This document shows positions 4,691 to 8,608 of a stretch of 64,000 bases of DNA, one piece after another. Every line of letters starts with the position of its first letter. Position 1 is the first letter of the stretch. The DNA lies in IMG/VR virus record IMGVR_UViG_3300034126_000020, positions 128,001-192,000 of that record, one strand, 5' to 3'. The translations under genes and the position numbers were made by a program. The notes beneath the pieces are model-generated. The model did not search any database. It was not told the DNA's origin and saw only the letters and a program-made list of their open reading frames with translations. Source of the DNA: a virus (Duplodnaviria > Caudoviricetes).

Positions 4691-5575
4691 TTACTTCAGT
4701 TGGTAGTCTTTGACGATCTTACCGCCGACTCCGGCGTTAATGACCATGGGGTTGATCCAGATGGTTTTACCAGATCGTTTATAAGTACGGTCATGACCAC
4801 GGCGATCATGTTCGCGACTCTGACGACGTTCACCGCAATCGCCAGTCTCAGTCCGACCTGCACTGACGATACGCTCTGACTTGTTGACCACCAGAATCCG
4901 GTAGCTGTCATACGGCAACGCTTTCTTACGTTGTTCGGTGAAGGTCATCTTCTTGGCAGGTATCTCCTGCTCAGAGATGTTACTGAAGGCAAAGGCTTCG
5001 CACAACTCACAGAGAGCCAGGGTTGGTCCTCGCATGGTGGCACCGGCCAGCTTCTCGAACCACTCCTTGCTCAGGCCAATGTCATTGGTCAGGGTGCAGG
5101 GGAGGATGCCGCTCTCAAGAAGCTCAAACATCGGGCCTTTCTCTGAGGGCATCTTGGCGATGAACGGTGCACTGATCCACGTGCTTTGATCAGGCACGTG
5201 ACTGACCACGGTGATCTCAATAGGGCCTGCGCCTTCCTGAGTGGCGATCACAATGATCTTGTCCCGATAACAGTGACCGGAGGTCATCAGTTTCAGTATC
5301 GGGTCCTCAATGTGGTGCAGGGCGGCTTCGGCTGCTATTGCTGCCAGATAGTCTTCCTTGTGGTAATACTCAATCACCACACAAGGGTAGGGCAACCGGA
5401 TCTTCTCCGGAAGACAACGCAGGTTGTTGTCCAACACCCGACCACCTTCCGGCAGTGCGAACTTAGGAGCTGTCATGGCTGCTTGAAGCGTCGCTGCCAA
5501 CTCATTGTTACCGGCAATCCGCTTCGAGCGTTTGAAGAACTCCATCGCTGTTCGGAAATAGTTAGGACCTTCCAT
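4691..5575 (-). CDS. Conserved phage protein with a C-terminal REHDRRGHxR..GK.IWI motif
   Basis: 294-aa ORF; basic His-containing C-terminal motif suggests nucleic-acid binding. Confidence 0.65.
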   Translation of the reverse strand: MEGPNYFRTAMEFFKRSKRIAGNNELAATLQAAMTAPKFALPEGGRVLDNNLRCLPEKIRLPYPCVVIEYYHKEDYLAAIAAEAALHHIEDPILKLMTSGHCYRDKIIVIATQEGAGPIEITVVSHVPDQSTWISAPFIAKMPSEKGPMFELLESGILPCTLTNDIGLSKEWFEKLAGATMRGPTLALCELCEAFAFSNISEQEIPAKKMTFTEQRKKALPYDSYRILVVNKSERIVSAGRTETGDCGERRQSREHDRRGHDRTYKRSGKTIWINPMVINAGVGGKIVKDYQLK

Positions 5576-6023
5576 TCTTTCTCCTGCTGTCGCCTAAGGC
5601 AACCGTGATATCTGCTTGGATGAACGGGTAGATGGCTCGGTAGACGTAACTGATGTCGTCTTCCCAGCTCAACCCGCCATGTCCACAGCCCATGGGTGGT
5701 AAGACAATGCGTCCGAGTCTGTGCCGTTGGGCCAAGACTGCAATCTTGTTGATGTGATGGACAACCAGACTACGGGGAGATGCGTCTCGCCAGTCTAGTT
5801 TCGTGGGCACCAACAGATAACGAATGTCGTTGTGTTTATACGTGATGATGTTCCCTGGCTCAATCGTTGGGTACATCTTGCGATAGTGCTTGTGAAGCCC
5901 TGGGACCGTGTTACGGGCAGTTCGAGCCACTCCGGCTCCCATTGCCCCGACCAGATTGATCGTGATCACACGGGTGTCCGCAGGGACGTCAAACAGGTCT
6001 TGTTCCACGATCGTTAGTGACAT
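5562..6023 (-). CDS. Macrodomain ADP-ribosyl hydrolase (DarG/Poa1p-like)
   Basis: NLVGAMGAGVA, PTKLDWRDAS and LPPMGCGHGGLSW motifs. Confidence 0.85.
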   Translation of the reverse strand: MSLTIVEQDLFDVPADTRVITINLVGAMGAGVARTARNTVPGLHKHYRKMYPTIEPGNIITYKHNDIRYLLVPTKLDWRDASPRSLVVHHINKIAVLAQRHRLGRIVLPPMGCGHGGLSWEDDISYVYRAIYPFIQADITVALGDSRRKNGRS

Positions 6024-6059: not shown

Positions 6060-6081
6060 GTCTTAACCAAATCGAATAAAA

Positions 6082-6099
6082 GGAGGGCCGAAGCCCTCC
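6082..6099 (-). terminator. Intrinsic terminator (UUCG loop, U-tract)
   Basis: ggagggc-cgaa-gccctcc preceded by aataaaa on the plus strand. Confidence 0.8.
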
Positions 6100-6101
6100 C
6101 C

Positions 6102-6512
6102 TTACTTTTTCTTTCCGCCAGGCGGACCCGCGACACCACCCATCAACTTGTTGACCTCGGTGTCCTCTTTCGTGGAGACCGTGTCACACCGCTTGAGGAC
6201 TGCTTCCGCACGATCACGGGGCATCCTCATGAAGGTGTCAAGTGACATGCCGGTGTATTTGAGTACGTTGGCAACCAAGTATCGCTCAAGGTACACATCA
6301 AACGGATCAACCAGTGCCAGGTCTTCGGACTCGTGCATCGCAATCGAGGCGTACGGACTCATGCCTTGAGAGCTTTGTGCGTGGACCCCGAAGTAGTCGT
6401 CGTAACACTCGGTGATGATGATCTGGGCTGGAATGCTGTCAAGAGTCCCTTCGAACTTTGACAGCACTTCGTCAAGGGCAGTGATGCTGTCCTTGTCCTC
6501 CAGCTTGTCCAT
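6102..6512 (-). CDS. T4 gp51-like C-terminal module; probable -1 frameshift extension of 6554..8152
   Basis: GMSLDTFMRMPRDRAEAVLK resembles the gp51 C-terminus; no clear RBS; frame open back to the slippery site. Confidence 0.65.
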   Translation of the reverse strand: MDKLEDKDSITALDEVLSKFEGTLDSIPAQIIITECYDDYFGVHAQSSQGMSPYASIAMHESEDLALVDPFDVYLERYLVANVLKYTGMSLDTFMRMPRDRAEAVLKRCDTVSTKEDTEVNKLMGGVAGPPGGKKK

Positions 6513-6553
6513 CCCGAACCGACGATCACCAGCATGGTAGCCTAACGGAAGGG

Positions 6554-8152
6554 TTAGACTGCCGCGCCTTCTACTTGGCTGATCTTCAGTGCGGCTAGGG
6601 TGAAAAAAACGTAACCGATGTCGATTGGGATCAAGTACGGATGCGTTTGGTCTTCAGGCTCCTTCTGGCACGCCGGGCACTTGACTTTCGGCAGGCCGAT
6701 GTAGGAGACCGTGGACTTCTTGATCCATTCGATGATTTCGTTGGTGAAGCGATCACCGACTTCTGGGTCTTCGGACAACATCTCGAGGATACGGTCTTTG
6801 TTCACCAGGTCATCGTAGATCACCGGCGCCGAGTCAGCGTCCAAGGCGTGCTCGAAGTGAGCCACCCAATGACTGTACTGACGCAGGTTCGTCAACGCAC
6901 CACTGCGCATGATGTGTCGAACGCGGTCCATCTCAGACAGACGCGCACCGAACGCATCGTTGGTCGCTTTGGAGATACCGTCAACCCACACGTGACCGGA
7001 ATCGATCTGTGCAGCCAGCGAAGGCACCTTCAATACCGCAGTCAGGTTGTTACCCAGTGCGATACGCTTTTCAGTGAAGGTGAACTCGGCTTGGTATTCA
7101 GCCAGCCACTTCGCATCACGCTTGGCGCTACGCGAGGCCATCTTCAGCGCTTGGCCCGGGGTGAACTTGGAACGGTCAACAAAGCCCATACGAGCAAAGT
7201 TGATCAGCACTTCGTCGACGTGCTTGCACTTGTCCGGATCGGCAACGCACGGCTGACGCAGCGGGTAACCGTCTGGGTACATTGCACAGGCCAGACCCCA
7301 CAGCACTTGCTGGTAGTCACGGCTACGGATCACGTCCATCAGCTCATCAACAGTCTCGCCAGTTTCAAAGGCGTAGTTGACGGAGACGACGTGCTCCAGA
7401 GCGAAGCGCATGTAGGTTTCAACAGTGTAGACTTCCACTGCCGAGAACACCATGCCGTTCGAGGAGCGACCGAGGTTCATCTTCTCCATGCGGGTCTTCT
7501 GTTCGAAGTCCAGCAGAGCCTGGATGGTCGGGGCACGGAAGGTGAGCCACAGACCGGTGTTCCACAATGGCACTTGCACCATCGAGCCTTGGCCAAAGGT
7601 CGCACGGATTGCCATGATCGGGTCTTTCATGTTGGCAGGTTTGACCTTACCAGCACCCAGAGCCGTTTCATTGTGCATCAACGTGTTGTGCCAGTTGCCT
7701 TCTTTGTCGATGCCGTCGAAGTACATGTCTTGCCATACGGCGGACAGACTGCGGGACAGGTTGACCAGACGGCGGTCTTCAGGCGAGAGGGTCTTGGCCT
7801 TCTCGTCAGTGAGATCGTTCAGACCACGGTGATCCATGATCATGCCCATCTCTTCCATGCCGACCTTCAGCGCAACGAGGCCTGGGCGACCTGGATCGAG
7901 GTCTTGACGTTTGAACATGGGTGACGCCATGGTGACGTGCGGGTTCGGACTGTCGAACTCTGCCCACAGTCCTTCGATTTCCATGCTGACTTCGGGTACT
8001 TGTTCTTCTGGAGCTTTAGCAGTGGCCGCTGCTGTGGTGGCTTGGGCGAATGCTTCAGCGCTGGTAGCGCCGTCTACGTTCGGTACCAAGTTGGACGTGT
8101 CCAATTCCACCTCGTCCATTCCTTCATTCTGGGGTTTCTGGTCGTCGCTCAT
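6554..8152 (-). CDS. Conserved Chimalliviridae protein (phiKZ gp77-like); T4 gp26-like tail/baseplate-hub assembly chaperone
   Basis: 532 aa; C-terminal VKCPACQK...YVFF resembles T4 gp26 IKCPECGK...EFF. Confidence 0.65.
   Translation of the reverse strand: MSDDQKPQNEGMDEVELDTSNLVPNVDGATSAEAFAQATTAAATAKAPEEQVPEVSMEIEGLWAEFDSPNPHVTMASPMFKRQDLDPGRPGLVALKVGMEEMGMIMDHRGLNDLTDEKAKTLSPEDRRLVNLSRSLSAVWQDMYFDGIDKEGNWHNTLMHNETALGAGKVKPANMKDPIMAIRATFGQGSMVQVPLWNTGLWLTFRAPTIQALLDFEQKTRMEKMNLGRSSNGMVFSAVEVYTVETYMRFALEHVVSVNYAFETGETVDELMDVIRSRDYQQVLWGLACAMYPDGYPLRQPCVADPDKCKHVDEVLINFARMGFVDRSKFTPGQALKMASRSAKRDAKWLAEYQAEFTFTEKRIALGNNLTAVLKVPSLAAQIDSGHVWVDGISKATNDAFGARLSEMDRVRHIMRSGALTNLRQYSHWVAHFEHALDADSAPVIYDDLVNKDRILEMLSEDPEVGDRFTNEIIEWIKKSTVSYIGLPKVKCPACQKEPEDQTHPYLIPIDIGYVFFTLAALKISQVEGAAV
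6602..6608 (-). other. Candidate -1 ribosomal slippery heptamer T_TTT_TTC
   Basis: Codons GTT TTT TTC; the -1 frame runs stop-free into ATG 6512. Confidence 0.7.
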
Positions 8153-8164
8153 GTCTCTGCCTTA

Positions 8165-8608
8165 TCACGCAGTTTTCTTTTCGGAACGAACAAGATCACC
8201 AATCAGGTCCATCAGCTCACCGGAATGGGGAGAGACGGTTGCAGTGGTCTGTTCAATGAAATCATAGTAATCACCACCGGCCTTCAACAGGACAGGGTGA
8301 TTAGGATTATTCAACACAGCTGAGGTGATCTCAGCGCTGTGCTTGGACTTGATCCCGTCGAGACGTTTCTTCATCTCTTCCAGATCACGTTTGATGATGC
8401 GGGTCAGCTCAGCGACGCGCTTGCCGTTTGGAGATTTGCTCCAGTCGTAACGAGCAGCGTCTTGGGTGGTTGTAGCGAAACTGTGCAGAAGTCTCAAGGA
8501 CTGTTGGTGAAGGGACTGCAACCCCTGACTCCGTGTAAGCTTGGACATGATCGTTTGAACCCCAGTAATATGGAAAATGGACTGGCCAATTATTTGTACT
8601 TTACTCAT
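8165..8608 (-). CDS. Conserved hypothetical protein (start may be 8548)
   Basis: 147-aa helical ORF upstream of the chaperone gene. Confidence 0.7.
   Translation of the reverse strand: MSKVQIIGQSIFHITGVQTIMSKLTRSQGLQSLHQQSLRLLHSFATTTQDAARYDWSKSPNGKRVAELTRIIKRDLEEMKKRLDGIKSKHSAEITSAVLNNPNHPVLLKAGGDYYDFIEQTTATVSPHSGELMDLIGDLVRSEKKTA

Follow-up and report, generated by a model that had tools for sequence, protein, structure and literature searches.

A conserved slippery site near the end of a phiKZ gp77-family gene and its probable use for a -1 frameshift in jumbo phages

Whether two adjacent open reading frames (ORFs) of a jumbo phage are separate genes, or one gene read in two frames, is the question raised by a locus in the 64,000-nucleotide (nt) window analyzed here, which is the whole stretch from position 128,001 to 192,000 of the IMG/VR virus record IMGVR_UViG_3300034126_000020 (Duplodnaviria; Caudoviricetes). 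On its minus strand a long ORF (ORF A) is followed, after a short spacer, by a small one (ORF B; Table 1). A prediction made from the sequence alone (the original prediction) had proposed that ribosomes slip back by one base near the end of ORF A and enter ORF B, so that the two ORFs form a tail chaperone pair of the lambda G/GT kind. A conserved frameshift in the tail assembly chaperones of long-tailed phages is attributed to Xu, Hendrix and Duda (2004, as cited in PMC9024508). The analysis below indicates that recoding, whether by the ribosome or in transcription, is highly likely at this locus, and that a programmed -1 ribosomal frameshift probably gives products of 59.4 and 76.4 kDa.

A slippery heptamer near the end of ORF A

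The heptamer T_TTT_TTC was found at the coordinates and in the register that had been predicted. From position 6602 the -1 frame encodes HPSRTEDQPSRRRGSLTLPLGYHAGDRRFG and then MDKLEDK, and it is indeed free of stops as far as 6104..6102, a total of 166 codons. ORF A, which had been said to end at VFF, runs for 15 further codons (TLAALKISQVEGAAV) to the TAA at 6556..6554. The predicted fusion, joined after F517, comprises 683 amino acids (aa) with a junction at which ...IGYVFF is followed by HPSRTEDQ..., and the computed masses of the two products, 59.4 and 76.4 kDa, agree with the approximately 59 and 76 kDa given beforehand. The predicted tryptic junction peptide ends ...IGYVFFHPSR, and its frame-0 counterpart ends ...IGYVFFTLAALK. 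A run of seven T's is in itself unremarkable, as five such runs were observed in the window and 4.5 are expected by chance. Elsewhere within gene A the -1 frame contains approximately one stop per 21 codons.

The proposed mechanism is as follows. Most ribosomes translating this gene would stop at 6556..6554 and yield the 532-aa protein. At U_UUU_UUC (6608..6602) a fraction would move back by a single base while tRNA-Phe occupies the P site as well as the A site, and would continue in the -1 frame to 6104..6102, giving the 683-aa form. The slip would thereby exchange the last 15 residues, which form the end of the final helix, for a conserved, mostly helical domain of 166 residues, and the "gene" at 6512..6102 would be the tail of the long form and not an independent gene. 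The sequence features and their conservation were observed directly; that ribosomes slip here, how often they do so, and that the products act as chaperones is what we infer. No description of this frameshift was found in the literature searched, and the preprint on the virion structure of phage Goslar mentions neither the gene nor a frameshift nor a chaperone.

Table 1. Positions of the features discussed, in the window unless an excerpt is named
Feature	Position	Strand	Remarks
ORF A	8152..6554	minus	532 aa, 59.4 kDa; frame-0 product; TAA at 6556..6554
Slippery heptamer T_TTT_TTC (X_XXY_YYZ)	6608..6602	minus	register GTT TTT TTC of ORF A, 15 codons before the stop
-1 frame extension	6602..6102	minus	166 codons plus stop at 6104..6102
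Apparently intergenic spacer, 41 nt	6553..6513	minus	coding linker in the -1 frame (LTLPLGYHAGDRRFG)
ORF B, 136 aa	6512..6102	minus	ATG at 6512..6510 is the start chosen by the gene caller
Candidate stimulatory stem-loop	6598..6559	minus	GCCGC (6595..6591) pairs with GCGGC (6565..6561); helix starts about 6 nt past the heptamer
Intrinsic terminator-like hairpin and T-run	6106..6075	minus	directly past the end of the -1 ORF
147-aa ORF	8608..8165	minus	upstream of ORF A, in the same operon; position of phiKZ gp78
Heptamer and -1 ORF regions of T4 relatives	L042 1878-2066; L044 1866-2057; L043 1899-2078; L045 1678-1866; L046 1642-1830; L047 1660-1866		sequence excerpts

Conservation of the site and of the frame relation

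ORF A is the ortholog of phiKZ gp77, 201phi2-1 gp136 and EL gp47, as judged from the notes in the 201phi2-1 record and from a match to phrog_4585 (E value of 7e-91). It matched 234 phage records using tblastn and 1,493 clusters at 50% identity using phmmer. To follow the site across this family, 21 annotated GenBank genomes were inspected, the ORF A homologs of which share 21 to 27% identity with that of the window, except for phage DT01 (72 to 73%). Their hosts belong to Pseudomonas, Erwinia, Salmonella, Klebsiella, Escherichia, Ralstonia, Burkholderia, Vibrio, Aeromonas, Stenotrophomonas, Serratia and Bacillus. Together with the window these genomes represent 22 lineages, and a further 19 IMG/VR loci bring the total to 41.

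In 22 of the 22 lineages and in all 19 IMG/VR loci the downstream ORF lies in the -1 frame relative to ORF A, and at the 41 loci, with zero exceptions, this frame is open back across the stop of ORF A to a T-run in a conserved FF(T)L motif. With random frames and independent lineages, agreement in 22 of 22 would have a chance probability of about 1e-10, although the lineages are not independent. The length of the linker varies, so the frame relation could easily have drifted. Upstream of the heptamer a stop in the -1 frame is met after only about 12 nt in several lineages, and past FF the frame-0 tail reaches its stop within 9 to 45 codons in every lineage checked. An in-frame heptamer, T_TTT_TTC/T/A, was present in 19 of the 22 lineages. 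The check for the slippery site and the -1 relation in relatives, which the original prediction had put forward, thus came out in its favor. The slip site also keeps TTT and a preceding codon ending in T despite the codon bias of GC-rich members, as TTT accounts for very few of the other Phe codons of the gene (0/18 in RSL2, 1/17 in DT01, 2/22 in D3 and 2/18 in RP12). As judged from these comparisons, it is through conservation, and not through the T7 run itself, that the site and the frame relation exceed chance.

The same data bear on whether a sequencing error in the homopolymer, or a mutation of recent date, has broken the frame, in which case the true gene would be a single ORF of 683 codons. 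Some sequencing chemistries are prone to errors in T-runs; against this, the same break recurs at 41 independent loci, which come from both isolates and metagenomes and were sequenced in many different laboratories, none of the best 150 representatives out of the 1,493 clusters agrees in length and match range with a C-terminally fused form, and the frame-0 tail past FF always ends within the short range given above. The chance that an error or recent mutation explains the break is therefore negligible.

ORF B as the probable tail of a longer product

Two separate genes are annotated in all 21 GenBank records and a joined coding sequence in none, in keeping with the expectation that standard annotation would miss the pair. 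Ordinary annotation would be right if no recoding occurred and the 136-aa ORF were independent, with initiation at the ATG at 6512 or at equivalent weak starts, perhaps by termination-reinitiation coupling; the frame relation would then be a side effect. The ATG is present in the window and its closest relatives, gene callers place a start in every genome, and among the T4 relatives described below the ATG overlaps or adjoins the upstream stop in some, as is typical of coupling, while one of them, Cygsa01, is without the heptamer. The bases upstream of the ATG at 6512 offer only GGTG at a distance of 14 nt and GGG abutting the ATG, with no AGGAG. In four of six relatives the codon equivalent to the ATG is ATT (L019), ATC (L020 and L021) or TTA (DT01), these being relatives of 64 to 78% identity.

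Across all lineages the -1 part, from slip site to stop, is 154 to 175 aa long. The annotated starts within it are spread over 80 codons, between residues 9 and 88, and are ATG, TTG, CTG or GTG, often one of the latter three. Within the clade of the window alone, database copies of ORF B range from 101 to 145 aa. When the -1 parts were aligned, an H..FG motif proved to be conserved, and it precedes all of the annotated starts. The score against phrog_12109 improves once the upstream part of the -1 frame is included. In PA7, a phiKZ-type phage, a "noncoding" gap of 218 nt is open in the -1 frame, and the frame is open to the T-run at all 41 loci.

Substitutions in the linker point the same way. 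Over the 13 linker codons between the stop of ORF A and the ATG at 6512, the variable sites among seven close relatives are distributed 5/5/13 over the first, second and third positions of the -1-frame codons, an excess at the third position that is the pattern of coding sequence, and the linker peptide is conserved where the DNA differs. Starts that are scattered and not conserved, together with a constrained linker, argue that the 136-aa "gene" is the tail of the long form, and independent initiation of ORF B is very improbable. Both the sequencing-error and the independent-gene explanations were rejected, each on the grounds given for it above.

Fold of ORF A and of the extension

A confident AlphaFold model of ORF A based on an alignment of 114 sequences had a predicted local distance difference test (pLDDT) score of 89.9 and a predicted template modeling score of 0.85. 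In this model the last helix spans residues 512 to 531 and has the FF motif at its start, so a shift there would replace most of that helix by the new domain. Four cysteines are nearly invariant, C302 and C309 (C-x6-C; window positions 7249-7228, minus strand) and C492 and C495 (C-x2-C; 6679-6668, minus strand), and these two distant pairs suggest a structural zinc site.

A Foldseek search of the model against BFVD returned orthologs first, followed by approximately 25 T4-type baseplate-hub assembly proteins of about 250 aa, with E values from 8.5e-5 to 4e-2, probabilities of 0.97 to 1.0 and template modeling (TM) scores, normalized by target, of 0.45 to 0.58. In the ESM Atlas, ORF A matched a cluster with PF12322 in 14% of its members (TM score of 0.47); no match was found in the PDB. 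The domain PF12322 was touched below threshold by only 3 of 90 homologs of ORF A, with a best E value of 0.0011. Judged from this model, ORF A has the gp26/gp51 fold, yet it is not a member of that family by sequence tests (see below), and the description of the upstream protein as gp26-like accordingly stood for its fold and did not for its sequence.

The extension modeled alone was helical but poor (pLDDT of 63), and a fold search with this poor model returned only the orthologous small ORFs. A profile of gp51 tails and of the -1 peptides of phages PhiW-14, OLIVR6 and AsFcp_1 aligned locally to residues 103 to 148 of the extension, covering the SLDTFMRMPRDR region (E value of 6e-4, probability of 28%), and comparison of the extension family with whole-length gp51 profiles gave nothing significant. 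The likeness of the extension to the gp51 C terminus is suggestive only. The claim that the downstream part is gp51-like thus found backing in this one local alignment and none in the other comparisons; the T4 gp51 motif cited for it had been given with one wrong residue (SLNSISKMIPAER, not SLNSIMKMIPAER).

Ribosomal or transcriptional slippage

Several observations weigh against a ribosomal frameshift that makes two forms of a tail chaperone. At the level of protein families, the window proteins had no Pfam match at E values up to 1, PF12322 included, and when the ORF A family was compared using hhalign with T4 gp26, with T4 gp51 and with an alignment of 25 gp51 members, only the CxxC aligned. 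Since the FF motif is conserved as protein, the register of the T-run cannot count as separate evidence of slippage. The heptamer is replaced by G/A_TTT_TTT in 2 of the 22 lineages (FLC9 and Psa21) and in two IMG/VR loci, and a canonical heptamer is missing from just one lineage, Vibrio phage pVp-JHP1101, with GTA CTT TTT ACG (excerpt L010 2601-2620). The predicted fold downstream of the heptamer in the window is not unusually stable (minimum free energy z-score of only -1.1), and a consistent downstream stimulatory structure was not found across 23 loci (mean z of -0.42, P = 0.13). No proteomic report of a trans-frame protein was found in the literature searched. Finally, Churi gp256, a homolog of phiKZ gp077, is listed among the hypothetical proteins in an early-infection proteome of a phiKZ-like phage (PMC11849849). 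This is unexpected for a late tail chaperone, except if synthesis begins early or virions bring the protein into the cell, and it calls for caution in assigning a role in tail assembly.

In pVp-JHP1101 the -1 frame is nonetheless open from GTA CTT TTT ACG into the conserved domain. In the 201phi2-1 record gp136 is not marked as found by mass spectrometry, and its neighbor gp138 is. The candidate stem GCCGC/GCGGC of the window appears in the consensus fold of seven relatives; it is invariant and so offers no covariation.

The lack of a conserved RNA stimulator across the 23 loci also speaks for a different kind of slip, in which the phage RNA polymerase adds one U to the U7 run, or drops two, and part of the mRNA pool then has the fusion in a single frame. 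In most lineages the site is a homopolymer of seven to nine T's, homopolymer runs can induce polymerase stuttering (reviewed in PMC5009743), and these phages have their own unusual RNA polymerases. Such transcriptional slippage is harder to reconcile with the lineages in which the run is short: D3 (ACT TTT TTC) and Yong MS31 (TAT TTT TTC) have a perfect X_XXY_YYZ with six T's, Bacillus phage AgentSmith has T_TTT_TTA, and the T4 relatives mostly have six or seven T's followed by C or G. Runs of this length slip polymerase poorly, yet serve a ribosomal shift well. Transcriptional slippage is therefore unlikely, and a -1 ribosomal shift is preferred.

Parallel with T4 gp26 and gp51

In T4, gp26 and gp51 are hub assembly chaperones (Leiman et al. 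2010, PMC3004832). They comprise 208 and 249 aa, respectively, both belong to PF12322, and they are similar to each other at an E value of 2e-6. T4 gp51 consists of the PF12322 domain plus about 48 additional C-terminal aa (segment PF28602 in precomputed annotations), and gp26 ends ...IKCPECGK...KEFFELL, in accordance with the C terminus that the original prediction had quoted, with its FF motif about 13 residues past the second Cys pair. Both T4 proteins share with ORF A the fold recovered by Foldseek, two distant Cys pairs, and a second CxxC with an FF-type motif roughly 13 to 21 residues further on, where the domain ends. Moreover, in T4 as in the window the short form ends at the FF motif and the long form adds a C-terminal segment. 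In T4, however, the two forms are separate, divergently transcribed paralogous genes, and gp26 is without a slippery run; the 3' end of gene 26 reads GAG TTC TTT GAG TTA CTA TAA (excerpt L016 3803-3850), in which the run is broken. T4 is the only phage examined here in which gp51 is a full-length paralog with a gene of its own. ORF A is also 2.5 times larger than the T4 proteins, with about 300 extra N-terminal residues, and the 166-aa extension of the window is only weakly like the approximately 48 aa of T4 gp51.

Seven relatives of T4 were then examined: PhiW-14 (Delftia), OLIVR6 (Agrobacterium), AsFcp_1 (Aeromonas), P-SSM2 (Prochlorococcus), RL2RES (Rhizobium), Melnitz (Methylophilales) and Cygsa01. 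In all but Cygsa01, from which the heptamer is absent, the gp26-type gene ends in (D/S)F(F/L) and carries an in-frame T_TTT_TTC/G/T 3 to 9 nt before its stop. The same six have a -1 ORF of 57 to 62 codons, the peptide of which aligns with the gp51 tail; the records of P-SSM2, OLIVR6 and Melnitz show part of this ORF as a tiny separate "gp51." The number of PF12322 genes is one in each of the three phages counted (PhiW-14, AsFcp_1 and OLIVR6), as opposed to two in T4. The six resemble the window in the position of the site, the direction of the shift and a -1 ORF that is open from the slip site; they differ in that the extension is only about 57 to 62 aa and clearly gp51-like. As an ATG lies just past the upstream stop in several of these phages, coupled reinitiation is a stronger rival there than in the window. 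No description of a frameshift in T4 relatives was found in the literature searched.

By analogy, the hub-assembly chaperone pair gp26/gp51 of T4 is the closest functional counterpart of the two predicted products, and the short and long forms of ORF A would play the roles of gp26 and gp51, respectively. This would offer a concrete reason why T4 needs both proteins. We tentatively suggest that the FF-motif frameshift may be ancestral to the contractile-tail hub-assembly chaperone superfamily, including the T4 gp26/gp51 relatives, cyanophages and phiKZ-like jumbo phages, with T4 as a derived case in which duplication replaced recoding. If this is true, T4-type and jumbo myoviruses would have in this ancestral frameshift the counterpart of lambda G/GT that they have long seemed to lack, and it would have arisen in an unrelated, or at most very distantly related, protein.

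Comparison with lambda G/GT

The locus resembles lambda gpG/gpGT in that slipping by -1 at a heptamer close to the 3' end of a morphogenesis gene would give a minor, C-terminally extended product, and in that ordinary gene calling misses both. The surroundings differ, as ORF A is neighbored by a small ORF, virion RNA polymerase subunits, a macro domain and a phosphatase and, unlike lambda G/GT, does not lie beside tail tube or tape-measure genes. At 532 aa, with a zinc-type four-Cys site, ORF A is also about four times the size of G (roughly 100 to 150 aa).

These differences bear on the proposal that the pair is a true homolog of lambda G/GT (or of P2 E/E' or Mu gp41/42) that has moved away from the tape-measure gene. 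In its favor are the shared expression logic and a weak shape match of residues 86 to 294 of ORF A to a 142-aa cluster with Phage_TAC_4 in 15% of members, although the TM score of 0.51, normalized by the shorter partner over 108 residues, means little. A name in one record also leans toward it: in Acinetobacter phage Stupor (MN662249.1, 117393-118034) the homolog of T4 gp26 is called a "tape measure protein assembly chaperone," and some annotators thus already equate gp26 with tail assembly chaperones. No Phage_TAC family of Pfam was matched by the window protein or by any of the 90 homologs at E values up to 1, and with the size, the four cysteines and the neighbors this makes descent from a shared G/GT ancestor improbable. 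The likeness to G/GT is one of expression logic only, and homology is not shown; to this extent the proposal of a G/GT tail chaperone held, and the lambda-type identity did not. What the locus very probably represents, on the sequence comparisons made here, is a new instance of the phage chaperone-frameshift theme, in a protein with the gp26/gp51 fold and with a deeply conserved recoding site.

If the slip is real, a core gene of nucleus-forming jumbo phages is misannotated in every record examined, and a domain of 154 to 175 residues passes for a small orphan gene of its own. Studies of these phages, therapy candidates included, by proteomics, structure determination or gene knockout should then regard the two ORFs as a single gene that has two products. 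The principle of tail assembly that two chaperone forms are made in a fixed ratio would extend to phage groups for which no report of it was found. With seven T's, no obvious stimulator and very deep conservation, the site would also be a good natural system for studies of frameshift efficiency in infected cells.

Neighboring features

The 147-aa ORF upstream of ORF A is co-conserved with ORF A and its extension at all loci examined and always precedes ORF A. A PHROG search with this ORF returned no match; it may be part of the same functional unit as ORF A. On the other side of the locus, a macro-domain gene (6023..5562) matches phrog_335 (phosphatase, macro-type). Between the terminator-like hairpin and this gene lies the motif GATACATTATC (window positions 6062-6040, minus strand), which may be a phage promoter and which is kept in phage DT01 (excerpt L001 5656-5675).

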